A DNA stretch of 64,000 nucleotides from Thermacetogenium sp. UBA5472 (GTDB taxonomy: Bacteria; Bacillota; DSM-12270; Thermacetogeniales; Thermacetogeniaceae): contig DIQC01000089.1 in the NCBI GenBank assembly GCA_002426495.1, positions 28,728 to 92,727 on the forward strand, written 5' to 3'. The translations under genes were made by a program, and so were the position numbers. Every line of letters begins with the position of its first letter. The first letter of the stretch is position 1. Below, in pieces: positions 496 through 58,839 of the stretch. The notes under the pieces were generated by a model that had not been told where the DNA came from, searched no databases, and was given only the letters and a program-made list of their open reading frames with translations.

Positions 496-2025
496 TCAAA
501 TCAATGACCTTCCTGTCATCTCCGCTGGCTGCGGTATTCCCAGGATCTTAAGCATGGTCGGTGCGATATCCTCCAGGGCACCACCTTCTTTGAGACTGGC
601 TCCTCTATATTTTTCTCCAACCAAGATCAAAGGTACAGAATTTATTGTATGAGCGGTATGGGGCCCATCACTGTCTTCCAGCATCATCTCGGCGTTCCCA
701 TGGTCAGCAGTGACAATGACGGTGCCCTTTCGCTCCAAGACAGCATCCACCACCTGTTGTAAGTACCCATCAACAGCTGAAACTGCCGCCTTTGCTGCTT
801 CCAGCACACCTGTATGCCCTACCATATCCGGGTTGGCATAATTTAAAATAATAACATCATAGATATCTCTGCGCAGCTCAGAAATCACTCGCTCTGTAAC
901 TTCCGGAGCACTCATCTCAGGCTTTAAATCATAGGTTGCGATTTTGGGTGATGGAATCAAAACCCTATCCTCATTGGGATTTGGCTCCTCTACACCACCA
1001 TTGAAAAAAAAGGTCACATGAGCATACTTTTCCGTCTCGGCAATACGCAGCTGTTTCAAGCCATGCTCTGCCAGAACCTGACCCAGTGTGTTACTGAGCT
1101 CCTGTGGAGGAAAAGCGACATGAGCAGGTATTGTAGCATCATACTGGGTCATACAGGTGAAGTGAACACCAGGGTATTCCCTTCTGGTGAACCCCTCAAA
1201 ATCCCTATCGACAAAGGCACGGGTGATCTCTCTGGCCCTATCTGCCCTGAAGTTATAAAAGATCACTGAGTCTCCCAGCCGAACCATTCCTTTGGGCTTA
1301 CCCTGCTCATCGACAACAACTTTGGGCAATACAAATTCATCAGTGATCTGATCTGCATAGGATCTTTTTACAGCCTCTGCAGGCAGCAAAACCTTTTCGC
1401 CCTCTCCATAACAGATAGCTTGAAAAGCCTTTTCTACCCGCTCCCATCTCTTGTCCCTGTCCATGGCGTAGTATCTCCCGCTTATAGTAGCTATCTCCCC
1501 GATGCCTACTTCCTTGCATTTCTGTTCCAACTCTTTTATATATCCCACACCACTGGTAGGGACTACATCCCTTCCATCCAAAAAAACATGGATATATACC
1601 TGGGATAGATCATAGTGACAGGCCATCTCTAACAGGGCATAGAGATGTGTCAGGTGGCTGTGCACTCCCCCGTCGGAGAGCAGACCCATCAGATGCAGAG
1701 ACGTCCCCTTCTCTTTTGCCTCCTGCATGGCATCGAGGAAAACCTGATTTTTCGCGAAATCACCACTATATATCGACTTAATGATCCTGGTGATATCCTG
1801 ATAAACCACCCTGCCGGATCCGATGTTCAGGTGTCCTACTTCGGAGTTGCCCATCTGCCCTTCTGGAAGTCCTACCCTTTCTCCTGATGCATCAAGAACT
1901 GTAGCCGGGTATTTTTGCTGCAGTTGATTGTAGTTGGGTGTATCAGCGAGACAAATGGCATTTCCTCGCTGAACAGGGCAAAGCCCCCACCCATCGAGAA
2001 TAAGCAGCATTAAAGGGCTTTTCAA
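496..2025 (-). CDS. gpmI: 2,3-bisphosphoglycerate-independent phosphoglycerate mutase
   Basis: LILDGWG, QMGNSEVGH, GRYYAMDRD, AETEKYAHVT, DMVGHTG, TADHGNAE motifs; glycolytic operon context. Confidence 0.98.
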   Translation of the reverse strand: MKSPLMLLILDGWGLCPVQRGNAICLADTPNYNQLQQKYPATVLDASGERVGLPEGQMGNSEVGHLNIGSGRVVYQDITRIIKSIYSGDFAKNQVFLDAMQEAKEKGTSLHLMGLLSDGGVHSHLTHLYALLEMACHYDLSQVYIHVFLDGRDVVPTSGVGYIKELEQKCKEVGIGEIATISGRYYAMDRDKRWERVEKAFQAICYGEGEKVLLPAEAVKRSYADQITDEFVLPKVVVDEQGKPKGMVRLGDSVIFYNFRADRAREITRAFVDRDFEGFTRREYPGVHFTCMTQYDATIPAHVAFPPQELSNTLGQVLAEHGLKQLRIAETEKYAHVTFFFNGGVEEPNPNEDRVLIPSPKIATYDLKPEMSAPEVTERVISELRRDIYDVIILNYANPDMVGHTGVLEAAKAAVSAVDGYLQQVVDAVLERKGTVIVTADHGNAEMMLEDSDGPHTAHTINSVPLILVGEKYRGASLKEGGALEDIAPTMLKILGIPQPAEMTGRSLI

Positions 2026-2816
2026 TCATCTTTCCTCCTTAGATCTGCCGTAGACTGGATGATCGCAGTGAATTTATCAATATCCAGGCTTGCACCGCCT
2101 ACCAGTACCCCGTCAATATCCTCTTCTTTCATAAACGAAGTTACACTCTGCGGGGACACACTGCCACCGTAGAGAAAGCGCAGCCCGCCGGCCATCTCTT
2201 CGCCGTACATCTGGGCAATTTCTTGACGCAGAGCACTGATCACTTCCACAGCATCCTCCGGTGTTGCGGTTTTTCCGGTACCGATAGCCCAGATCGGTTC
2301 ATACGCCACTACCAGAGCATCAGGTTGCGCAATTTTTATGCCATCCAGGCCTGCCTTCAACTGTTTCCGACAGTATTCCACAGCCCGGCCTGTTTCCCTG
2401 GTGGCCAGACTCTCCCCCAAGCAAAAGATAGGACGCAGACCACAGGCGAAAGAAGCAGCCAGCTTTCTTCTGATCATATCATCAGTTTCACCAAAGTTGC
2501 TGCGGCGCTCCGAGTGGCCTATGATCACATAGTGACAGCCCATTGCTTGGAGCATAGGTCCGGAGACCTCTCCTGTAAATGCACCTTCTGCCTCCCAATG
2601 CATATTCTGGGCACCCCAGCCGATCTTGCTTCCCGCTAATTTGTTGGCTACTGCAGCTAAGGCCGGAAAGGGCGGACAAACAATTACCTCAACACTGCCA
2701 TTTAATTGCTGTTGATTAACATTTTCCAGCAGTAATTTTGTAAAGTTACCAGCCTCAGCAGGTGTTTTATGCATCTTCCAGTTACCAGCCACCAAAGGAG
2801 TTCTTTTATTTCCCAC
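2022..2816 (-). CDS. tpiA: Triosephosphate isomerase
   Basis: AGNWKMH, GAFTGEVS, IGHSERR, AYEPIWAIGTG, LYGGSV, LVGGASL. Confidence 0.98.
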   Translation of the reverse strand: MGNKRTPLVAGNWKMHKTPAEAGNFTKLLLENVNQQQLNGSVEVIVCPPFPALAAVANKLAGSKIGWGAQNMHWEAEGAFTGEVSGPMLQAMGCHYVIIGHSERRSNFGETDDMIRRKLAASFACGLRPIFCLGESLATRETGRAVEYCRKQLKAGLDGIKIAQPDALVVAYEPIWAIGTGKTATPEDAVEVISALRQEIAQMYGEEMAGGLRFLYGGSVSPQSVTSFMKEEDIDGVLVGGASLDIDKFTAIIQSTADLRRKDD

Positions 2817-2843
2817 TATACAGGTTCTCCTCTCTGATATAAT

Positions 2844-4025
2844 TTATTTCTTCATCAGCACGGCCACCCCAGGAAGCTCCTTGCCCTCTAAAAATTCCAA
2901 AGAGGCGCCGCCCCCAGTGGATGCATGGGTGATCTGATCCGCTAGACCATATTTCTTCAGCACTGCCAGAGAATCGCCGCCCCCTACTACAGATACCACT
3001 CCCGGGTCAGACAAAGCTCTGGCTACCATCTCACTTCCATGGGCAAACTGTTCTTTCTCAAAAACACCCATCGGACCATTCCAGAAAGCTGTTTTGGCCT
3101 TCTTTATTAATTGTGAATAGTTATCAGCAGTGCGTGGTCCAATGTCCAGGGCAGACCAGCCTCTAGGGACATTTGCGGATTCCTCAACCTTGACCTGTTC
3201 ATTATTTCCGGTCAAGGTAATGACCAAATCCTGGGGAAGTTCAACCCGCACACCCCGCTCCTTAGCCATAATCAAAAACTTTTTGGCAAATTCCAGATGA
3301 TCTTCGTCAACCAGTGAATCCCCTAATTCTAACCCTTTAGCTTTTAGAAAAGTATTGGACATACCCCCACCGAGAAGAATGGCATCAACCTTATTTAACA
3401 GGTTATTGAGAACCCCAATTTTATCAGCGACCTTGGCACCCCCCAGCACTGCCGCAAAGGGATGATCAGGTTCAAATAAAATACTCCTCAAAGACTTGAT
3501 CTCTTTTTCCATCAATAACCCAGCATATGCGGGAAGATAATCTGCCACACCCACAGTAGAAGCATGGGCGCGGTGGGCTGTCCCGAAGGCATCGTTGATA
3601 TAAACTTCAGCAAGAGAAGCTAGGCCTTTGGCAAAGCCAGGATCATTTTTTTCTTCCTCTAGGTGAAAGCGCAGATTTTCCAGGAGAAGAACATCTCCTT
3701 CTTTTAAGCCCTCTGCGGCTCTGGAAACTTCAGGGCCAATGCAGTCATCGGCCTTTTTTACTTCTTTACCCAGTAGTTCTCCCAGGCGCCTGGCCACATC
3801 ATCGAGGCGCAGTTTCTCTACAACCTTACCCTTTGGCCTCCCTAAATGGCTCATCAGAATAACTCTGGCATCTCCCTCAAGAAGGTGTTTAATTGTAGGC
3901 AGTGTAGCTTTGATCCTGCTGTCATCTGCCACTTTTCCTTCGTCATCTAAAGGGACATTGAAGTCAACCCGCACCAGCGTTTTTTTGCCCTTTACATCCA
4001 GGGAACCGATGGTCTTCAGCTCCAA
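2844..4025 (-). CDS. pgk: Phosphoglycerate kinase
   Basis: [63 protein letters not shown]. Confidence 0.98.
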
Positions 4026-4045: not shown

Positions 4046-5122
<1,077 letters not shown>

Positions 5123-5243
5123 TTATAGTATGTAAATTATCTCTGTATTATATAGGTCATTTTTTTAAGGGATCACGTTTTCCCTGGACCCTGTAACAGA
5201 TATAATCAAGATAACCCATATAATACATAACATATCCCTTAAA

Positions 5244-5271
5244 ATTATATACTATTTGATTGGCAATGCAA
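5244..5271 (-). promoter_or_regulatory. SigA-type promoter for the gap operon
   Basis: Minus strand TTGCAT-N16-TATAAT, about 190 nt upstream of the gap start. Confidence 0.6.
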
Positions 5272-5282
5272 CCCAGATCAAT

Positions 5283-5306
5283 AAAAAAAGGCGCAATATT
5301 GCGCCT
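5283..5306 (-). terminator. Intrinsic terminator of rpoN
   Basis: AGGCGC-AATATT-GCGCCT hairpin followed by a T-run on the minus strand. Confidence 0.8.
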
Positions 5307-5344
5307 GAGTTTATAAATACAATCTATTATAATAATTTATCAGT

Positions 5345-6763
5345 TCAGCGATAACGCTTCCGCTGCCGCATACTGGGAACCCTAATCTCCTTCCTGTATT
5401 TCGCTACTGTCCTCCTGGCAATGTTGATACCCTTTTTCTGTAGCAGATCACAAAGCTGCTGGTCACTATAGGGATTATAGGGATCCTCAGTTGTGATTAT
5501 CTCTTTCATACCATGTTTAACACTCTCTGCGGCTACCATCCCTCCTGCAGCAGCACTTTCCACACCGCTGGTAAAAAAGAATTTAATTTCAAAAAGGCCC
5601 TGGGGTGTTTGAACATATTTGTTGGAGGTAGCACGGCTCACAGTAGACTCATGCAGATCAGCCATATCAGCAATCTGCTTGAGATTAAGAGGCTTCAGAT
5701 ACTTGATTCCCTTGTCCAAAAATTCCCACTGATAATCTATAATACACTGTACAACCTTGTAAAGGGTGAGCCTTCTCTGTTCAATGCTGCGGATCAGCCA
5801 GAGAGCAGCTTTCATTTTGCTCTGGATGAATTCAACTGTTCCTTTATCACAGTCGGTCTTTTGTTTAACCATACGCTGGTAATTGTGGTTGATCATCAAG
5901 CGTGGCACAGCAATATCGTCGACAATAATTACATACTCGCCATTTACTTTTTCAACCACTACGTCAGGGACAATATAGCGGTTTTCCCCGGGGAGATAAA
6001 AATTGCATCCGGGTATTGGATCTAGCAACTTGATCAGATCTGCCTCCTTCTGCACCTCTTGCACTGTAATCCCTGTGGATGCAGCAATTTTAGACAAGTT
6101 GCCATTGGCGATGTCATCCAGGAAAACGCTTATAATCTTCTCTAATACAGGGGTGCGTTGACCATGCTGGTCCAGCTGAATCAGTAGGCACTCCTGCAGA
6201 TCCCGTGCCCCCACCCCCGCAGGATCAAATGATTGAATAACCCTTAAAACTCTTTCGATATCCTGCATCTGGAAACCTGATACCTTGTGCGCTTCTTCCA
6301 GACCAATGTTCAAGTAACCGCGGTCATTTATGTTTCCGATGAGAAATTCTCCGATCTCCATATCTTCAGGATCGGAGAGAGCAAGGCACAGTTGGAGATA
6401 TAGGTGGTCCTGCAAGCTGGGGATTTGAGCAACATAATGCTCTAAGCTATAGTACTCTTTCTCTTCATATCCTGCGGCCTTCTCAAAAGTGCGCTCAATC
6501 TGACCGCATTCAGCAAGATAATCACACCATTCCTCATTAAAATCATCTTCATCTTTACCTTCATCTTTACCTTCATCTTTTGAGGGCTTTTCCTCATGAT
6601 CTTCTTCTGTAATCTCAAGCAGAGGATTTTCCAGCATGGCATTTTCTACATATAGCTCCAAATCTGTCGCTGACAGCTGCAACACCATAATCGCCTGGCG
6701 CAATTCTGGAGTCATAGCCAATTTTTGTGTCTGTTCCAATTTCATTTTATAACCTAAGTTCAT
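5345..6763 (-). CDS. rpoN: RNA polymerase sigma-54 factor
   Basis: N-terminal QxQxLxMTPELRQAIxxLQL activator-interacting region, HESTVSRA helix-turn-helix, RpoN box ARRTVAKYR. Confidence 0.98.
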   Translation of the reverse strand: MNLGYKMKLEQTQKLAMTPELRQAIMVLQLSATDLELYVENAMLENPLLEITEEDHEEKPSKDEGKDEGKDEDDFNEEWCDYLAECGQIERTFEKAAGYEEKEYYSLEHYVAQIPSLQDHLYLQLCLALSDPEDMEIGEFLIGNINDRGYLNIGLEEAHKVSGFQMQDIERVLRVIQSFDPAGVGARDLQECLLIQLDQHGQRTPVLEKIISVFLDDIANGNLSKIAASTGITVQEVQKEADLIKLLDPIPGCNFYLPGENRYIVPDVVVEKVNGEYVIIVDDIAVPRLMINHNYQRMVKQKTDCDKGTVEFIQSKMKAALWLIRSIEQRRLTLYKVVQCIIDYQWEFLDKGIKYLKPLNLKQIADMADLHESTVSRATSNKYVQTPQGLFEIKFFFTSGVESAAAGGMVAAESVKHGMKEIITTEDPYNPYSDQQLCDLLQKKGINIARRTVAKYRKEIRVPSMRQRKRYR

Positions 6764-21367: not shown

Positions 21368-22105
21368 GTGAATACTTTGAATGAAGCTCTTGTAGTAATT
21401 GTTCGGGGTGTTATTGGCTTTTTTACACTGCTGATCTTTGCACGGCTTTTAGGCAAACAACAGATCAGCCAGCTCAGCTTTTTTGATTATATTCTGGGTA
21501 TTACCATTGGCTCTATAGCAGCCAGCCTGACTACAGATCTTACAACCCGGGCCTGGCCGCACTGGGTTGGCCTGGCAGTCTGGACCTTCCTTGTAGCGGT
21601 TTTACAGTTGCTCACCCTGAAATGGAGATATGCTGGTAAATATATTGATGGAGAACCAACTGTGGTGATCATGAACGGCAAAATTATGGAAAATGCCATG
21701 AAAAAACTGCGCTACCGTACCAGCGAACTCCTGGAGCAGTTGCGCCTGCAAAATGTATTTGATATATCACAGGTGGAATTCGCAGTTCTAGAAGTCAACG
21801 GTCAACTATCAGTTCTTAAGAAATCACAATATCAAACAGTCACCACACAGGATCTTAATATTTCTACCAACTATCAAGGTATAGGCACTGAATTGATTTA
21901 TGACGGAGTTGTTGTGGAACAAAACCTTGGACAGGTTAATCTAGACCGCACCTGGTTGGATGATCAGTTGAGAAGCGAGGGGATCAACGACCCTGCTGAG
22001 GTATTCCTGGCCAACCTGGATACCCAGGGTAACCTCTATATCGATAAATACCAGGATCATCTACAAAAGCTGACAGATATCGGGGATTATCCCGGACCAC
22101 ATTGA
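21368..22105 (+). CDS. DUF421 (YetF-like) membrane protein
   Basis: RLLGKQQISQLSFFDY, GITIGS, GEPTVVIMNGKI, AVLEVNGQLSV pattern. Confidence 0.88.
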   Translation: MNTLNEALVVIVRGVIGFFTLLIFARLLGKQQISQLSFFDYILGITIGSIAASLTTDLTTRAWPHWVGLAVWTFLVAVLQLLTLKWRYAGKYIDGEPTVVIMNGKIMENAMKKLRYRTSELLEQLRLQNVFDISQVEFAVLEVNGQLSVLKKSQYQTVTTQDLNISTNYQGIGTELIYDGVVVEQNLGQVNLDRTWLDDQLRSEGINDPAEVFLANLDTQGNLYIDKYQDHLQKLTDIGDYPGPH

Positions 22106-22106
22106 G

Positions 22107-22481
22107 GTGAACGCCTTGAAAAAACTCATTTACTACCTACTTCCTGTTGCGATACTGGCTCTGTTTATTGGAATTATGCTATCCGGTTCCTATCTGAAAC
22201 AGCCTCGTGGAGAGGATGATAGTGTTTCAGGCAAACTAGTGTTGGTGAAGGAAGCTGTACAAAAAGGCGACTGGAAAAGTGCCCAACAGGAGATAGACAA
22301 CCTGGAAGAAGCCTGGGAGAAGGTAGTGCCCAGAATTCAGTTCAGCATGGAAAAAAATGAAATAAACGATCTGGGTGTAAGCCTGACCAGAGCGCGAGCA
22401 GCAATAACAGCAAAAGATATAGCAGGAGCGTTAATGGAACTGGAAGAGGCAGAGCATCACTGGCATAGCTTAGGGAATTAA
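22107..22481 (+). CDS. DUF4363-family protein
   Basis: N-terminal TM segment, W...W..V..RIQFS.E..E pattern; usual partner of DUF421 genes. Confidence 0.75.
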   Translation: MNALKKLIYYLLPVAILALFIGIMLSGSYLKQPRGEDDSVSGKLVLVKEAVQKGDWKSAQQEIDNLEEAWEKVVPRIQFSMEKNEINDLGVSLTRARAAITAKDIAGALMELEEAEHHWHSLGN

Positions 22482-22505: not shown

Positions 22506-23519
22506 TTATTTACTTAAAATATCCCGGAGAAGCTGGGAAATAATCTCATCAAGTTCGTCCTCGGTAAAATAGAGTCCTTCTTTTCCCTCTTCAGAAGTGT
22601 CTGCCGTCCTCCCTGCTTCTGTTAGGAATGACTTAAGCTTTTGGACTTTTCTGCCTGCTTCCTGACAACAAGCCTCTGTTTGTGTATTACCACCCAGATC
22701 CCATACCACATCATCAGGCAGGGGAGAAAGATCTTTGTAACAACAGGTTATATCAACTACCGCCACCTGTATCTCCGGGAAAAACAGCGCAACACGCTGC
22801 ATGGGATCAATCCAGGAGTGAAAGGCTTCTACTCCATATCTACAGCTTAATGCCTCAATCAGAATCTCCTGCATCACTTTGGTTCCACTTTCTGGTGCTC
22901 CCTTGAGCAGATAGCGCTTTCTGCAGTGCTTTAATAGATGATGAAGGAATTCCACCTCCCCCTGTACAGTCACACTCCCGGCAAAAAAGTGTTTAAGAAC
23001 AGATTCCCTCTCCTGAAAGTCCTTGATCCATCCAGTAGCTTTGTTCATAACCCCCGCATCTGACGGGTCACCATAACCAGAACAACATGAGTTGTGGATT
23101 TCCCCGGCCGCATTTAATAATTGCCCAACTTTTTCATTTCCTAAAGCCCCGCAATCTTTCGTCTGAACACTGCCCCCGGGTAGTTCCACAGTTTTTACCT
23201 TCAGGGAGGGAAAGGAGCCCAGTTGGGCGCAGGGATGGTCTCTGCTGAGCACACCGAATCCCTTTACAGGAATGATCATTCCCTCCAAAACCATTGGATC
23301 CTCTGCACGATGAAAATAGTTTATATGTAAACTCCGGTCTTCTAATGCCAAGCCCAGCAGTCGAATAGCCAAACTCTGTCCGGAAATTGTGTTCCCTTGG
23401 AGCAGGTATAACCTCTTCAGTTCCTTAAAGCGCTCAGGCCAAAACGAAATGAAACCCTTGCTGGTCAGAGCACTTGCCAGATAATGTCGGTTCTTTTGTT
23501 TTATACCCATCCATCCCAC
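22506..23519 (-). CDS. PRK06851-like tandem P-loop protein with degenerate Walker A motifs
   Basis: Two repeats (HYLASALTSKGF...LYLLQG and HFFAGSVTVQG...YLLKGAP) with the architecture of this clostridial family; likely start ATG 23510. Confidence 0.6.
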   Translation of the reverse strand: MGWMGIKQKNRHYLASALTSKGFISFWPERFKELKRLYLLQGNTISGQSLAIRLLGLALEDRSLHINYFHRAEDPMVLEGMIIPVKGFGVLSRDHPCAQLGSFPSLKVKTVELPGGSVQTKDCGALGNEKVGQLLNAAGEIHNSCCSGYGDPSDAGVMNKATGWIKDFQERESVLKHFFAGSVTVQGEVEFLHHLLKHCRKRYLLKGAPESGTKVMQEILIEALSCRYGVEAFHSWIDPMQRVALFFPEIQVAVVDITCCYKDLSPLPDDVVWDLGGNTQTEACCQEAGRKVQKLKSFLTEAGRTADTSEEGKEGLYFTEDELDEIISQLLRDILSK

Positions 23520-24962: not shown

Positions 24963-26135
24963 CTACGCCGCCTTTTCGCTCTTCAACTGCTCCTCAAGTA
25001 CTTCTACAGCCTTTTCCAACTGAACATCTTCCTCTATATCCTTTGGCTGCTCAACAACGACATCCGGCTCGATCCCCTTGGCATGAATATCATGCCCATC
25101 AGGTGTCAAATACTTGTTGGTGGTCAGCTTGACCCCCTCTTGATCACCCAGGTTAAAAACAGTCTGTACCAGACCCTTGCCAAATGTACGTGCACCTACC
25201 AGTACCCCACTTTCAGAGTCTTTGATAGCACCGGCAACAATTTCCGAAGCGCTGGCACTCCCCCCATCTATGAGCACCACAAGGGGCCCCGTTACCTCTC
25301 GACCGCTGCGGGTAGCATATAAGACATCCTCTGTTCCTCCACTCTGGACAATTCGAACAACAGGACCATCCTTTAAAAAATACCCCGCTACTTCTACAGC
25401 CGCCTGCAGATCACCCCCGGGGTTCCCCCGCAGGTCAAGTATCAACCCACGATATTGAGCCTCTTCCAATTTTGTCAGTTCCTCATGTAGTTGGGTATTT
25501 GTATTGACACGGTTGAAATGCATCACACGCAAGTACCCTACATCCGGATAATCCTCAAGCATTCTTCCGCTTACAGAAGGAACAATAATTTGTTCTCTGA
25601 CCAACTGCACAGTAAAGGTTCGATTCTCCTCCGGACGCATGATCTCCAGGGAAACGGTGGTACCCGGCTCTCCTCGAAGAATAGCTGCAGCTTCAACAGT
25701 GGTCATATCTGTCGTTTCTTCATCTTCAATCTTAGTGATCAGATCCCCGCTTCGGATACCCTCCTGAGCAGCCGGTGTTCCAGGCAAAGGAGAAACAACA
25801 ACAATTTGATTGTCCTGGTTCATATCGATTTCTACACCTATTCCGCCAAAAGTCCCTTCTATCTGCAGATTTAACTCCTTAAAGGCTTCCCTGTCCAAAT
25901 AAACTGAATATGGATCATCCAAGGCTTCCACCATCCCCTCAACCGCACCATTTACCAATTTAGCTGTGCTGACATCTTCGATGTATTGACTTTTAATAAG
26001 AAAGAAAGTACTGACAAGTTTACTTACATTATTTTTGTGGGCCCAATAAAAAAACCCACCGAGCACACCGACAATTAATAGGACAATTAATACAACAGCA
26101 GTAATACGCAAACCGCGGGTCTTCAGCCTGTCCAC
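24963..26135 (-). CDS. Carboxyl-terminal processing protease, S41A family (CtpA/CtpB-like)
   Basis: LDDPYS, PDZ GIG, ILDLRGNPGG, SASASEI, TFGKGLVQ, GIEPD; true start may be CTG 26126 (SD AGGAGGTG 6 nt upstream). Confidence 0.95.
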   Translation of the reverse strand: MDRLKTRGLRITAVVLIVLLIVGVLGGFFYWAHKNNVSKLVSTFFLIKSQYIEDVSTAKLVNGAVEGMVEALDDPYSVYLDREAFKELNLQIEGTFGGIGVEIDMNQDNQIVVVSPLPGTPAAQEGIRSGDLITKIEDEETTDMTTVEAAAILRGEPGTTVSLEIMRPEENRTFTVQLVREQIIVPSVSGRMLEDYPDVGYLRVMHFNRVNTNTQLHEELTKLEEAQYRGLILDLRGNPGGDLQAAVEVAGYFLKDGPVVRIVQSGGTEDVLYATRSGREVTGPLVVLIDGGSASASEIVAGAIKDSESGVLVGARTFGKGLVQTVFNLGDQEGVKLTTNKYLTPDGHDIHAKGIEPDVVVEQPKDIEEDVQLEKAVEVLEEQLKSEKAA

Positions 26136-26312
26136 CTCCTGAATATATGCCTAGCCATCTTCCCCGTTTAACCACTTTATGTATAATATTACACTTTTAT
26201 CATTTTTAACAGCCCTGCTCCTTCTTTTTATCCTTACATAAATATACAGCAGAAGAAATTGATTTATGACCACACAATAGATTATACACTATTATTTTAA
26301 ACTTAAACCCCC

Positions 26313-26341
26313 TTGATGTATCTTTAAACTTATGAGATAAT
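26313..26341 (+). promoter_or_regulatory. SigA-type promoter ahead of the Moco/Wco riboswitch
   Basis: TTGATG-N17-GATAAT with an extended -10 TG. Confidence 0.6.
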
Positions 26342-26358
26342 ACAATTAATTAAATAGT

Positions 26359-26458
26359 TTTTCTCCGAGTCCACGAGCCTGTTGTTTTTAACTATGGCTG
26401 GCGGACCGTTAGGGTACATTTGGAAACGAGTGTGCCTCCCATTGCGGAAAGGAGAAGC
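26359..26458 (+). ncRNA. Moco/Wco (tungsten cofactor) riboswitch-like motif (RF01055-like), lacking P3
   Basis: TTCTCCGAG...CCTG...TATGG...GGAC CGTTAGGG TACATTTG-GAAA-CGAGTGTG CCTCCC-ATTGC-GGAAAGGAGAA: P1 TTCTCC/GGAGAA, GTCC/GGAC pairing, GNRA-capped P4, hallmark GCCTCCC...GGAAAGG. Recognised by eye. Confidence 0.8.
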
Positions 26459-26470
26459 GTACGATAATTA

Positions 26471-26504
26471 ACCGATCGCTTATTCTTTTCTGCGATCGGT
26501 TTTA
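26471..26504 (+). terminator. Intrinsic terminator (riboswitch expression platform)
   Basis: ACCGATCGC-N12-GCGATCGGT then TTT. Confidence 0.7.
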
Positions 26505-26552
26505 TGTTTCTAATTATGTTTCTATTGAAGATCGGCATCAGTACCATATATT

Positions 26553-26594
26553 TGCTGTGGGGAAAGCATCACACACCCCACAGCATATTTTTTT
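26553..26594 (+). terminator. Second plus-strand intrinsic terminator
   Basis: TGCTGTGGGG-N13-CCCCACAGCA followed by TATTTTTTT. Confidence 0.75.
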
Positions 26595-26619
26595 GAGGTA
26601 TGTGAGGGGTAAAATAAAA

Positions 26620-26649
26620 GGATGCAACAGGAACCATCCCGTTGCACCC
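26620..26649 (-). terminator. Terminator of the M23 gene; loop belongs to the REP-like family
   Basis: Minus strand GGGTGCAAC-GGGATGGTTCCT-GTTGCATCC then TTTTATTTT. Confidence 0.7.
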
Positions 26650-26664
26650 GCCGCTTCTCATTAT

Positions 26665-27846
26665 CTAGAGGTAACCTAGAGGATTAGTGGGGTTCCCGTT
26701 AATGCGAACTCCAAAATGAAGGTGCGGACCTGTACTACTACCTGCACCAGGTGTACCGGGAATACCGCCAACCTTACCTATGATTTGTCCTTGGCTCACA
26801 ACATCGCCTCTTCTAACTGCCATACTAGACATGTGAGCATATAATGTCGTAATCCCCCCACCGTGGTCAATTATCACTGTATTGCCATAGCCGCTTCGCA
26901 GACTGACATCGATAACTGTACCTCCATCCGCAGCCCGTATAGGAGAACCATAAGAGGCACCAATGTCGATTCCATCATGGAGCTTATTTACATGATAGAC
27001 AGGATGCCATCGCATTCCATAATTAGATGTGATCGGTCCTGCTGCCGGCCAGCTGAAACGACCATTTCCCCGGGATGGCATTGAATTCGATGAACCCGTA
27101 GAACCCGATGAATTACTTGACTGATACTGCTGAATGAACTGTGTTATCTGCTGGGATGTCGCTTCCAATTCATCAATAGCTCGCTGACAAGCGGCTTGGT
27201 CAGACTGCAGCCTCTCCAATGTATCTTGCCTGTCCTGTTTACGTGATGCCAGATAGGTCTGCTTAGCCTCTGTTGTTTTTTGTAGAACACCAACCTCTTC
27301 CCTTTTCTCCTCCAGTTCACGCTTCAGACGGGAAACGATGTCCCTCTCCTCAGTCAGTTCCTTGACCATCTTTGTATCCTGATCTGTTATTTTTTTTAAT
27401 AGATCGAAGCGCATCAGAAAATCACTCATACTGGTGCTGTCCAGCAGTACTTCGAGATAGGAAATATTACCCTGCATATAGATGTTTCTTAACCGCTGAT
27501 GGTAAGCATCTGTCCGCTCCTGTAGTGCTTCCTCTTTCTCCTGCAGCTGCGGTTCGAGCTCGTCTATTGACACTTGTAGTGCAGACAGCTCTCTATCGAT
27601 CCGCTCCAAATCGGTAGATGTTTTAAAGATATCCTGGTCGATCTCGTCTAATTGATCCACAATATCTTTTTGTTGTTCTTGATTCTTATTCAACTGCTCT
27701 CTACGTTCTTCAATCTGGCTGTTAACCTTGGACAGTTCATCTTTCTTCTCCCCTAGATCTGATGCCTGAGCAGGTGCCATCTGACTGAAGATCAGCACGA
27801 TTCCTAACATGGTACTTACAACAATTTGAGTAACTCTTTTTTTCAT
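26665..27846 (-). CDS. Coiled-coil plus M23 peptidase (EnvC/CwlO-like murein hydrolase partner of FtsEX)
   Basis: Signal peptide, long coiled coil, HDGID, GYGN, HGGG..TLYAH, STGPHLHF. Confidence 0.92.
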   Translation of the reverse strand: MKKRVTQIVVSTMLGIVLIFSQMAPAQASDLGEKKDELSKVNSQIEERREQLNKNQEQQKDIVDQLDEIDQDIFKTSTDLERIDRELSALQVSIDELEPQLQEKEEALQERTDAYHQRLRNIYMQGNISYLEVLLDSTSMSDFLMRFDLLKKITDQDTKMVKELTEERDIVSRLKRELEEKREEVGVLQKTTEAKQTYLASRKQDRQDTLERLQSDQAACQRAIDELEATSQQITQFIQQYQSSNSSGSTGSSNSMPSRGNGRFSWPAAGPITSNYGMRWHPVYHVNKLHDGIDIGASYGSPIRAADGGTVIDVSLRSGYGNTVIIDHGGGITTLYAHMSSMAVRRGDVVSQGQIIGKVGGIPGTPGAGSSTGPHLHFGVRINGNPTNPLGYL

Positions 27847-32593: not shown

Positions 32594-33680
32594 TTATAAA
32601 CGAAGATAGGACTCGATAAAGACGTCAATCTCCCCATTCATAACAGCCTGGATATTTCCAACTTCCACAGAGGTGCGGTGATCCTTGACCAAGGTGTAGG
32701 GCTCAAAAACATATGAGCGAATCTGATTACCCCAAGCTATCTCCCTCTGTTCTCCTCGCAGTTTGGCGAGTTTTTCCTCCTGTTCGCGCCTTTTCAACTC
32801 CAGTAGCTGTGAGCGGAGCATATTCATTGCTCGCGTTCGGTTAGACAGCTGGGATCGCTCAATCTGACACTGCACTACGACTCCTGTGGGAAGATGAGTG
32901 ATCCGCACAGCTGAGTCTGTTTTATTCACATATTGCCCTCCGGGGCCACTTGCCCTGTAGGTATCTATATGCAGGTCATCTGAGTTGATCTCAACTTCCA
33001 TATCCTCCTCTACCTCAGGGATCACATCCACTGAAGCAAATGAAGTATGACGCCTTCCCGATGAATCAAATGGAGAATTGCGTACCAGCCGGTGCACACC
33101 TCTTTCAGCTTTCAGATAGCCATATGCATTCCTACCTGTGACAAGAAAAGTGATGCTTTTAATTCCCGCCTCATCACCAGCAAGATAATCAAGCACCTCT
33201 ACATTGAGACCTTGCCGGACCGCCCAGCGTCCATACATGCGGAAGAGCATTCCCACCCAATCCTGAGCCTCTGTGCCTCCTGCCCCGGCATGCAGAGAAA
33301 CCAGAGCATTCCTCTTATCAAGGGGGTCATTAAATAGGTTTTCCTGCTCCCACTTTTCTACAGCAGAAGAAAGTTTAGATAACCCATCCGTAAGTTCACC
33401 GGCCAGTTCCGGATCCCCAGACTCCTCGCTCAATTCCCAGACAACATTAAGCTCCTCATAATCTCCACTGAGCTTCTGAAAGCGTGTCAGGTCATCTTTG
33501 AGCGCATTTGCCTCCTGAAGCAGCTTTTTCGCTAAATCAGGTTCCCCCCAGAAATCAGGGTTTACCATCAGTTTTTCAATTTCTTCTAATTTATTCGCTT
33601 TGGCCTCCAGGTCAAAGTGAACCCCTCAATTCCTGTAATTTTTGTTCTAATTCTTTCAGTTCTCTCTTGTATTCATTCAA
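32594..33680 (-). CDS. prfB: Peptide chain release factor 2, two frames joined by a +1 frameshift
   Basis: TTG start at 33680 gives 22 codons MNEYKRELKELEQKLQELRGSL to CTT-TGA-C; the +1 frame continues DLEAKANK... into the 324-aa ORF with SPF anticodon motif and GPGGQ. Confidence 0.96.
33611..33626 (-). other. Programmed +1 ribosomal frameshift cassette of prfB
   Basis: Minus strand AGGGGT-TCA-CTTTGAC: internal SD plus the slippery CTT TGA C site. Confidence 0.95.
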
Positions 33681-33714: not shown

Positions 33715-34881
33715 TTATCTCGACATTTCAGCCTGTGTACGTGCTTGATGGTAATTAATATCAATTGTGCTGCCTATACCATAACCTGCTCTTACTCGAA
33801 ACCCCGTCTTTAATTTGATTGCTACAGCTACCCTATCAATCATTTTTTCAAGAATAGCAGGCTGTTTGACCTTAGTTATAACAGCATATTCATCCCCGCC
33901 GATCAGGGCAACTAGATCATAATTTCTATCATTGGCGAGTTCGCCTCTAACCAGGCCGCGGATCAACTGTAAAATGGATACCTTTATGTTTTGAACCTCA
34001 TACTCAGTATGCATTTTTACATAACTGCCGAAATTCCTCAGATCAAAGAGAATCGCCGATTCCTTGCCGGTCAGTGATACTCCTAAAACACCCAATCGGG
34101 GGTCATCTCTATCTGTAATCCCGATTACCAGGTCACGTACTACCTCGTATTCTAGCCGCTGAGATCCCACACCCAGACAGGTATAGCCTTTAATTTTCCT
34201 TTCGATGGCACACAACTGGTCAAAAATAGCAACCAACTGGGCCAGGTTGCCGCCTAGCACCGCATACTGTGCCGATTTGTAGTTTAAAATGTCTGATCTG
34301 ATAACACTGTTGATACTTAGATCATCACAGACCAGGTTCAAAGTAGGCGACTGGATCTTGACATGATGATGCATGGCTATAGCCTCAAGAACTTCCTGAG
34401 AACAATGATGCTTTTTCGCAATCTGGTAACTGACTTCGATATGAGTATGGAAAGGCACCGTCCACTCCGCCCAATTCATTCCCTGATAGCGGCGTAAATG
34501 AGTAGGCACCTCCCCCTTACGGACCACAGAGAAGCTAAAAAACCTGTCATCCACTTCTTTTCCTTTGCCCACATCATGAAGGATGGCTGCGTCGACTAAT
34601 TCCTCTCTCGTTATCTGCAAAACATCCAAAACGCTATTCGAAATAGACGCTGCCTTTTCTAACATGCGAAAAGTGTGGTGTAACTGGTTTTCCCCCGCTG
34701 AAACTACATCAGAGAGAGGCAATAGTTCCTTAATCTGATATATTCTTTCCACATAGGGAACTATCTTTGAGTTAAACACTTGTAGCAGTGTTTGATAAAA
34801 AAGCTCTCTGCTGGCAGGATACTCTTTATCCTGACAAAAATCATGCTGCTCTTCTTTGTCGTCCGTGGCCCCGTGTTCCAT
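33715..34881 (-). CDS. HD-domain protein fused to a divergent GGDEF-like/palm domain
   Basis: QLHHT(68-69), AAILHDVGK(102-103), FHTH, AIAMHHH(171-173), VAIFD(221); C-terminal AILFDLRNF(280)...LVALIGGDEYAV(328-331)...RAGYGIG. Confidence 0.8.
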   Translation of the reverse strand: MEHGATDDKEEQHDFCQDKEYPASRELFYQTLLQVFNSKIVPYVERIYQIKELLPLSDVVSAGENQLHHTFRMLEKAASISNSVLDVLQITREELVDAAILHDVGKGKEVDDRFFSFSVVRKGEVPTHLRRYQGMNWAEWTVPFHTHIEVSYQIAKKHHCSQEVLEAIAMHHHVKIQSPTLNLVCDDLSINSVIRSDILNYKSAQYAVLGGNLAQLVAIFDQLCAIERKIKGYTCLGVGSQRLEYEVVRDLVIGITDRDDPRLGVLGVSLTGKESAILFDLRNFGSYVKMHTEYEVQNIKVSILQLIRGLVRGELANDRNYDLVALIGGDEYAVITKVKQPAILEKMIDRVAVAIKLKTGFRVRAGYGIGSTIDINYHQARTQAEMSR

Positions 34882-58603: not shown

Positions 58604-58627
58604 ATAGTATATATTAATGCGAACCCA

Positions 58628-58814
58628 GTAACGCTGAATTCTCCGGGGGGAGAAACGGGGAAACCAATCAACGGGGTGAATCTTCGCACTCAAATTATTT
58701 TCAGATAACAATATTGAGTTGTTATCTGATATATGTGGATAGATTTGAGTGTAAAGTAGGGTTACCTTACAACCCGAATCCGACAGCTAACCTCGCAAGC
58801 GTGGGCAAGGAAGG
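58628..58814 (+). ncRNA. Cyclic di-AMP riboswitch (ydaO/yuaA class)
   Basis: Conserved blocks ACGCTGAA, CGGGGAAACC, GGGGTGAATC, GTAGGGTTAC, CCCGAATCCGACAGCTAACCTCGCAAGCGT. Confidence 0.92.
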
Positions 58815-58839
58815 CAATTGCAAAATAATTAATTATGTC

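Follow-up and report, generated by a model that had tools for sequence, protein, structure and literature searches.

What does a riboswitch for a molybdenum/tungsten (Mo/W) cofactor control when no gene follows it? Described members of the Moco motif lie in the 5' UTRs of genes that encode Mo/W transporters, Mo/W enzymes or proteins of pterin biosynthesis (PMC2408646). In the DNA analysed here, a stretch of 64,000 nucleotides from Thermacetogenium sp. UBA5472 (hereafter the window), the original prediction placed a promoter, a Moco-type aptamer and two terminators on the plus strand, with no gene to regulate, and read them either as the relic of a deleted gene or as a stand-alone RNA acting in trans or by antisense interference. 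The features of the locus are the following.

24963–26135, minus strand: ctp (S41 peptidase), flank of the riboswitch unit
26313–26341, plus strand: sigma-A type promoter (promoter scan)
26351–26470, plus strand: P3-less Moco/Tuco riboswitch aptamer (RF01055, cmscan against Rfam 15)
26441–26496, plus strand: predicted anti-terminator (RNA folds)
26472–26503, plus strand: terminator T1, the riboswitch expression platform (fold of -16.9 kcal/mol)
26504–26596, plus strand: 30-codon ORF (ORF list), judged not to be a gene
26527–26551, plus strand: conserved 25-mer GAAGAUCGGCAUCAGUACCAUAUAU (alignment of 10 variants), proposed effector of the long RNA form
26553–26594, plus strand: hairpin 2 / terminator T2 (folds), marking the 3' end of the long form
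26610–26649, minus strand: M23 intrinsic terminator (terminator scan, 13-bp stem followed by TTTTATTTTA; scan position 26649–26620)
26665–27846, minus strand: M23/PcsB-like peptidase gene, the convergent flank, followed by ftsX and ftsE

Genomic context and orthologous loci

The window has a G+C content of 45.6% and a housekeeping gene content (glycolysis, rpoN, whiA, uvrABC, secA, prfB and others), and scanning of ~40 of its ORFs with Pfam or NCBIfam retrieved no Mo/W gene. Its Ctp protein is 88% identical to that of a 'Syntrophaceticus sp.' MAG, 79% to that of S. schinkii and 67% to that of Thermacetogenium phaeum. A mis-join of the assembly, raised as a possible source of the gene-less arrangement, is unlikely, since an independent metagenome contig of 13.5 kb spans positions 25600–27200 with no difference to the window; the gene order at the locus is also identical in relatives.

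Orthologous ctp loci were gathered from species genomes, metagenomes and assemblies, giving 10 distinct variants (window, L161, L154/L155, L001, L157/L158, L156, L004/L159, L160, L012/L128 and L088) from Syntrophaceticus-like Thermacetogeniaceae, with 62–92% Ctp identity to the window. In all of them the riboswitch unit is bounded by the M23 terminator on one side and the ctp promoter on the other, and lies on the strand opposite to both genes. The M23 terminator is the edge of the unit and stands outside the unit proper. In none of the 10 variants, the window included, was a gene or a conserved ORF found between T1/T2 and the convergent M23 gene, and the absence of a gene to regulate, as first claimed, was borne out.

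Promoter and aptamer

The promoter consists of TTGATG (26313–26318), a 17 nt spacer and TG-n-GATAAT (GATAAT at 26336–26341, with the TG extension), from which transcription is predicted to start at ~26347–26349. Both the scan and the conservation in relatives, where the promoter block CCCCTTGA.G.AT and the -10 region are kept in L001, L004 and L012, support the SigA promoter originally placed here. Metatranscriptome contigs of relatives stop 5–15 nt inside the predicted 5' end of the RNA, with zero coverage farther upstream, and the interval from the predicted start site to the 5' end of ctp is uncovered in every run examined; the latter contradicts a candidate minus-strand promoter toward ctp, which was discarded.

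The aptamer matched RF01055 over its full length (1–135) with 70.5 bits (gathering score 36; E 5.6e-15 by cmscan, and 4.6e-17 when the local stretch alone was used), and the orthologous aptamers score 58.9–68.8 bits. The cmscan alignment has a deletion at every P3 column of the model, P2 joining P4 directly, and P3 is absent in 10 of 10 variants; the covariance model thus confirmed the Moco-motif aptamer without P3 that had been recognised from the sequence. Stem P1 (26361–26366 with 26451–26456) is 97% paired among the variants and shows no sequence variation, P2 is 86% paired with 4 compensatory pairs, and P4, closed by an invariant GAAA loop (26424–26427), is 99% paired with 3 compensatory pairs. 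The P2 bulge (CCUGU...CUAUGG, against CCUAag...AuGG in the model consensus) is receptor-like only.

The unit therefore resembles RF01055 members (PMC2408646) in P1, P2 and P4 with its GAAA loop, in the conserved CUCCGAG, CCUCCC and GGAAAGGAG blocks, in the lack of P3 and in the use of an intrinsic terminator as expression platform, as in some described members (PMC2408646). On the contrary, it differs from them in being gene-less and in having a second conserved non-coding element 3' of its terminator. The ligand of the window aptamer is probably a pterin cofactor and, because P3 is absent, probably its tungsten form. This agrees with the link between P3-less Moco-motif members, 58 of 176 representatives, and the tungsten cofactor (Regulski et al. 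2008, PMC2408646), which the original prediction had taken as known. For the Escherichia coli member the evidence for the cofactor is genetic, with repression by Moco (PMC2408646).

Terminator T1 and its predicted anti-terminator

T1 folds into an 8-bp stem, CCGATCGC (26472–26479) with GCGATCGG (26492–26499), carrying a 12-nt loop and followed by UUUU within a U-tract. Among the 10 variants 100% of its cells are paired and 4 of its 8 pairs are compensatory. Taking aptamer and T1 structure together, pairing is kept in 92% of cells, with 11 compensatory pairs; it fell to 27–50% when, as a control, the 3' partners were slid by 1–3 columns. RNA folding returned both T1 and T2 as described in the original prediction. 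Both were missed by a simple terminator scan with a loop limit of 8, probably due to their loops of 12 nt (T1) and 13 nt (T2).

In the RNA folds an anti-terminator competes with this structure. In it the aptamer 3' strand (~26441–26459, including the P1 3' strand GGAGAA) is base-paired to ~26477–26496, a segment made up of the T1 loop and the first part of the T1 3' arm. The anti-terminator fold of 26440–26510 reaches -23.4 kcal/mol (z = -3.5); when the whole leader is folded, the anti-terminator is likewise the state of lowest energy. By hand alignment an equivalent 10-bp anti-terminator, UGCGGAAAGG with CCUUUCUGCG, was found in L001, while the L004-type lineages have a weaker pairing to the T1 loop and a perfect anti-aptamer strand, CUUCCUUUCCCAU, directly 3' of T1. 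Since the anti-terminator uses the P1 3' strand, stabilisation of P1 by the ligand would free T1 and lead to termination. The folds thus point to a switch that would be OFF with ligand, in accordance with Moco repression in E. coli (PMC2408646).

A conserved domain downstream of T1

The two-terminator layout held, but the original prediction had overlooked a conserved element between the terminators. The spacer that follows T1 is variable in both length and sequence, and leads to the 25-mer, whose near-invariant core UCGGCAUCAGUAC[C/U]AUA spans 26532–26548. In the alignment of the 10 variants, 20 of the 25 columns are invariant and the other 5 are at 90%, against ~50% invariant columns in the aptamer. 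The element is unpaired in the consensus fold and in most of the single folds. An Rfam search with the 3' domain, admitting E values up to 10, gave only noise and no family. A scan of metagenome contigs with an 18-mer yielded 71 matches, three of which are orthologous units (L088, L089 and L128); the remaining 68, many reading VLMPIF on the opposite strand, were read as chance matches inside genes and discarded. With only orthologous units and presumed chance matches returned, the post-T1 element is single-copy.

Hairpin 2 follows directly, with the stem GCTGTGGGG (RNA GCUGUGGGG, 26554–26562) paired to CCCCACAGC (26576–26584) around a 13-nt loop, then ATA and seven U (26588–26594). It is present in 10 of 10 variants; its stem sequence is invariant apart from the closing pair, which covaries (U-A to C-G), its loop is variable and its U-run conserved. 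This U-run lies 3–9 nt from the stem, which is less than ideal for an intrinsic terminator. A search 3' of T2 for further elements common to the lineages returned the M23 coding sequence and the M23 terminator alone. The conserved unit thus ends at T2, because the spacers beyond it are unrelated between lineages.

Two further candidate features of this region were discarded. A promoter within the 25-mer (TTGAAG-16-TATATT, plus strand, by scan) has a -35 element that is not conserved, and its start would fall inside hairpin 2. A helix closing the 3' domain (GAAGAU with AUCUUU) was predicted in L001 only and is absent from the consensus fold.

Conservation and losses of the unit

At 4-fold degenerate sites of ctp the three main lineages share an identity of only 0.39–0.53: the window compared with the L004/L012 group gives 0.39–0.40, and compared with L001 it gives 0.53; by this measure neutral sites are near saturation among the lineages with the unit. 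With so low an identity, unconstrained sequence should be unalignable, as indeed are the spacers 3' of T2. To judge from these comparisons the unit is clearly under purifying selection.

The unit is missing in L002 and L003, and at least two losses must be admitted because both nest within unit-bearing lineages. In T. phaeum this locus likewise lacks the unit and has a TnpB-like pseudogene in the M23–ctp interval, which is a hot spot for insertions and deletions. Given the losses and the absence at this T. phaeum locus, the unit is dispensable. In L002 the sequence CTCCGAGCC looks like part of a hairpin; it gave no Rfam detection, and its candidacy as a Moco remnant was dropped.

Transcription in biogas reactors

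RNA data were taken from assembled (Logan) contigs of public runs, which are unstranded and of flat depth. In more than 10 metatranscriptomes, contigs run unbroken from the aptamer over T1 to the T2 U-run, strand not being carried by such data. Contigs crossing T1 into the 25-mer and hairpin 2 come from runs X4, X24–X27, X29, X30, X39, X43 and X45. One X4 contig matches the window exactly at 26407–26597 and stops at the T2 U-run, and a second X4 contig derives from a sister strain. On L012, contigs of X24, X25, X27, X29 and X30 extend from inside the aptamer (up to 5734) over T1 to hairpin 2 and T2, and several contigs there stop at the last U of T2; on L001, a contig of X39 covers 4250–4740 and X43 has a depth of 442 over 4525–4666. 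Contig ends coincide with the T2 U-run at 26597 in the window, 5486 in L012 and 4525 in L001.

Expression is high relative to the neighbouring genes. In X26, T1, the 25-mer and hairpin 2 of L012 are covered at a depth of 205–273, ctp at 14.7 and M23 at 44, so that the riboswitch unit stands at 5–17x the flanking genes; in X24, X25 and X27 the flanking genes were not detected. In reactors the unit is transcribed into abundant RNA that passes T1, with plus as its predicted sense, and the absence of a transcript, which would have spoken against the original prediction, was not observed.

Run X44 gave a 66-nt contig that begins at the U or C of UCGGC, ends exactly at the last U of T2 and is fused to adapter sequence. 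This hints at a processed 3' sRNA; an artefact is possible, however, since AGATCGG within the 25-mer is how the Illumina adapter begins.

A proposed cofactor-gated small RNA

We consider that an identified aptamer, an intact and covarying terminator, an anti-terminator, a conserved 3' domain, the lack of a conserved ORF and abundant RNA across T1 are best explained by an independent, gene-less transcription unit making a riboswitch-gated small RNA, in which the cofactor would decide whether the conserved 3' domain, acting in trans, is made. We give this reading a probability of roughly 0.55; its OFF direction, ligand and action in trans we infer. Among the explanations originally put forward, the stand-alone RNA acting in trans fits best with the conserved post-T1 domain and with the RNA found across T1.

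Transcription would start near position 26348. With the pterin cofactor bound, P1 would form and T1 would fold, releasing a short RNA of ~155 nt. With no ligand, the P1 3' strand would pair with the T1 loop and 3' arm as anti-terminator, and read-through would proceed to T2 (~26594–26597), giving an RNA of ~250 nt. The additional 3' domain of this long form, namely the near-invariant unpaired 25-mer and the GC-rich hairpin, would be the regulated output, and would act in trans at cofactor scarcity, either by base pairing with mRNA or by binding or sequestering a protein.

Searches for a base-pairing partner, which the original prediction had proposed in the form of complementarity to Mo/W enzyme mRNAs, revealed no site beyond chance in three metagenomes, in the 64-kb window and in the neighbouring operons of 9 loci. 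No complementary site of at least 19 nt was found in the three metagenomes holding the organism, and comparison of their contigs with 26505–26600 at 80% likeness gave orthologous variants only, on which a long antisense target in the organism's own genome was discarded. For seed-type targets in the window the best duplex (-27.2 kcal/mol) was not significant when compared with shuffled seeds (mean -24.3, sd 2.0, best -28.4). In the neighbouring operons, a site within a PDZ-protein gene was shared by no more than the three closest lineages; as the coding sequence is itself conserved among these, the recurrence was judged to be due to chance. An invariant stretch of 17–25 nt is longer than the usual sRNA seed and fits poorly with base pairing; this may indicate a protein or structured partner.

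A more complete version of this model can be offered tentatively, at somewhat less than even odds. A Tuco/Moco-sensing riboswitch would have a trans-acting regulatory RNA as its sole output, syntrophic acetate oxidisers making an RNA of ~250 nt at W/Mo cofactor shortage, possibly processed to a 3' sRNA of ~66 nt from the invariant UCGGC. Its invariant core would either reprogramme expression, in a cofactor-sparing response like that of RyhB/FsrA for iron, or sequester a regulator like EutX.

Alternative explanations

The RNA might instead serve as a cofactor-binding molecule per se, an abundant aptamer that buffers, stores or titrates the labile pterin cofactor, the terminators only defining and stabilising the RNA ends. 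We regard this as unlikely. The RNA is indeed abundant relative to the neighbouring genes, a regulated gene is absent, and 31-mers of X43 over the aptamer 3' half of L001 (4637–4667) reach depths of 2000–3800, although such very high depths may stem from paralogous Moco riboswitches of other organisms. A maintained anti-terminator and a compensatory T1 would be superfluous for a buffer, however, the most conserved part of the unit falls outside the aptamer, and X26 and X44 cover the 3' domain while the aptamer is partly or wholly uncovered.

The antisense interference on the ftsEX–M23–ctp block suggested originally was not supported by the arrangement of the locus. The gene ctp is divergent and cannot be read as antisense; toward M23, T2, the spacers and the M23 terminator intervene. 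In its remaining form, read-through RNA would enter the convergent M23–ftsX–ftsE genes and lower their expression by collision or duplex formation, coupling cofactor status to cell-wall hydrolysis. The next downstream gene is indeed convergent, and in a survey Moco riboswitches are enriched among predicted antisense-acting riboswitches (24/858, P = 4e-5; PMC9943018). RNA past T2 was also observed, L012 having in X26 a depth of 44 over 5198–5492, against ~250 within the unit, and one X39 contig links the module to the M23 3' end. Nevertheless, coverage in X26 is zero at the M23 terminator, T2 is kept in 10 of 10 variants, and most variants have an unconserved spacer beyond it (~35 nt in L160, 100–450 nt in most others). 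Moreover, a hairpin that follows in most variants, flanked by A-runs and T-runs (AAACCGGCACC..GGTACCGGTTT), should stop transcription in both directions, L159 holds a group II intron gene between the unit and M23, M23 has no known Mo/W link and the invariant 25-mer would be left unexplained. Altogether this makes the antisense explanation very unlikely.

Control of a tiny hydrophobic peptide, encoded by the 30-codon ORF or by a shorter one starting beside the 25-mer, is a highly improbable alternative. The ORF exists at ATG 26504 and, as stated in the original prediction, lacks a Shine-Dalgarno sequence; none was found in any of the 10 variants, and its start lies directly 3' of the T1 U-tract. 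When the three frames across the 25-mer were translated in the 10 variants, the 25-mer proved free of stops in all three forward frames, and a same-frame ORF (..[KQ][IF]GISTIY.LWG..) was open in the window, L161, L154 and L157. An ATG or TTG directly precedes the 25-mer in 5 of 10 variants. L160 opens the same frame as well, but reads ..YLAVG.. after the 25-mer. On the contrary, L001, L159, L012 and L088 have no start codon and L156 has an in-frame stop, and owing to indels of 1–3 nt 3' of the 25-mer, hairpin 2 is read in a frame that differs among lineages, the C-terminal halves being unrelated. The few substitutions within the 25-mer do not prefer synonymous changes. A coding function was discarded, there being no conserved start, frame or Shine-Dalgarno sequence.

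The decaying relic of a deleted tup/mod/moe gene leader, without present function, is hardly credible: the lack of a downstream gene, the absence from L002, L003 and this T. phaeum locus and the insertion/deletion hot spot would suit it, but it is contradicted by a strongly expressed unit conserved in 10 variants (62–92% Ctp identity to the window) amid saturated neutral sites, with its promoter conserved, the pairing of aptamer and T1 kept through compensatory changes and 20 of 25 positions of the 25-mer invariant, and none of the 10 orthologous M23–ctp intervals retains the Mo/W gene that was to be looked for.

Comparison with known systems and implications

Riboswitches with a non-coding RNA rather than a gene under their control are few, and the well-known cases use B12 or SAM. 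To our knowledge none has been described for the Mo/W cofactor class, and in the literature searched we found no earlier description either of a riboswitch-gated sRNA in this class or of the post-terminator element.

EutX of Enterococcus faecalis and Rli55 of Listeria monocytogenes are sRNAs under the control of a B12 riboswitch, whose long form, made only in the ligand-free state, carries a 3' effector. Their ligand is adenosylcobalamin, and the effector sequesters EutV by means of two ANTAR-binding hairpins. A cofactor-gated small RNA at our locus would resemble them closely, the unit having its own promoter, an aptamer, a predicted ligand-dependent terminator, no ORF and a 3' element in the long form. 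It differs in belonging to the pterin-cofactor class and in its candidate effector, an unpaired 25-mer with a GC hairpin instead of ANTAR-binding hairpins.

The SAM riboswitches SreA and SreB of Listeria are riboswitch transcripts that also act in trans. The same is reported for the SAM-I riboswitch/sRNA of Desulfovibrio vulgaris (bioRxiv 10.1101/803072). The likeness lies in a riboswitch transcript used as regulatory RNA on other loci, as proposed here. Those are, on the contrary, ordinary gene leaders whose terminated form has a second job, whereas the unit described here has no cis gene and, its conserved candidate effector lying beyond the terminator, the read-through form would act.

The hosts of the unit are syntrophic acetate oxidisers of biogas reactors. 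A cofactor-responsive sRNA, if true, would touch their core energy metabolism, because related species depend on molybdopterin formate dehydrogenases and on aldehyde:ferredoxin oxidoreductase (AOR) (PMC6895022). The hypothesis is directly testable, the unit being small, conserved and highly expressed and S. schinkii culturable. Moreover, many digester metatranscriptomes are rich in the long form, and its ratio to the short form could mark W/Mo limitation in situ.

Antisense-acting riboswitches have been described in Listeria (AspocR) and in Clostridium acetobutylicum (the S-box antisense of ubiG) (PMC9943018). The window riboswitch likewise faces a convergent gene, and the survey's positional criterion would probably list the locus (PMC9943018). 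It differs in that a conserved T2, variable spacers and the target's own terminator intervene, and in that the M23 peptidase is unrelated to the ligand. Riboswitches called 'orphan' or 'antisense' in surveys may conceal conserved effector RNAs before the next gene. The tables of the same survey hold a Moco riboswitch of T. phaeum beside a hypothetical gene, which lies at ~341 kb (341,220–341,343) and is a different locus (PMC9943018).

Transcripts covering the riboswitch unit and predicted pairing downstream of the first terminator

In the metatranscriptome run X43, a 1421-nt contig (depth 442) from a related strain was found to match the riboswitch unit of L001, one of the orthologous ctp loci (L001:4525-4666), and to extend 1.28 kb past the second hairpin, T2; read in RNA sense, it starts with GAGATGTGGGATGTGGGATGTGGGAGG. 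Across the 3' half of the aptamer (L001 4637-4667), the X43 31-mers reached depths of 2000-3800. A much shorter contig of 66 nt, with adapter sequence attached, was retrieved from run X44 at L001:4525-4590 (minus strand), equivalent to about 26532-26595 of the window, and starts at the opening bases of UCGGC, the invariant core, reaching the final U of T2 and possibly representing a processed 3' sRNA. The nearly invariant 25-mer includes AGATCGG, the heptamer with which the Illumina adapter starts, and this can give rise to trimming artefacts at the riboswitch-unit locus in any RNA-seq experiment.

An element CUUCCUUUCC(C)AU is present in the spacer following the first terminator, T1, at L012:5555-5575 and at the same position in L004, L088, L156 and L160, exclusively in those lineages. 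Its complementarity to GGAAAGGAG, a strand of the aptamer, is perfect, so that the read-through RNA of these loci would lock the aptamer open.

Variability of the M23-ctp interval and the box upstream of ctp

The interval between the M23 peptidase gene and ctp is an insertion hot spot in the relatives. A group II intron reverse transcriptase lies inside it in L159 (L159:1100-2371), and the L004 contig stops just beyond the same riboswitch module. In T. phaeum the interval is occupied by a TnpB-like pseudogene (L153:2242-3377), and spacers of 100-450 nt, mutually unrelated, follow T2 in L154, L156, L012, L088 and L157. By conservation, one further element was recognized:

26174-26205, read on the minus strand, box ACT[AT]TATG ... 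ATTATTA upstream of ctp

This box is kept in all the relatives, including those devoid of the riboswitch unit. Its reading on the ctp strand (CATA..AGT) resembles a sporulation-sigma -10 element. A ctp contig of run X4 terminates at window position 26150, adjoining adapter sequence, which is consistent with a 5' end close by.

Other features of the window

For several conserved ORFs the family assignment is scant or lacking altogether, among them:

22506-23519, minus strand, 337-aa protein, neighbour of the PDZ gene and conserved throughout the relatives, whose only matches are weak ones to 'hypothetical protein' models
33715-34881, minus strand, HD-domain protein

The same group contains two plus-strand ORFs, including 21368-22481, for which the Pfam/NCBIfam scan returned no family. 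In the prfB ORF (32594-33568, minus strand), the RF2 profile match begins only at profile position 32, which would fit a +1 programmed frameshift at the gene start, as is usual for prfB.

Elsewhere, a riboswitch was found upstream of a radical-SAM gene:

58622-58816, plus strand, c-di-AMP (ydaO/yuaA) riboswitch, 77.8 bits
59061-60347, plus strand, KamA-like radical-SAM protein whose C-terminal domain is that of lysine-2,3-aminomutase

This pairing may tie c-di-AMP to the synthesis of a beta-lysine-type osmolyte.
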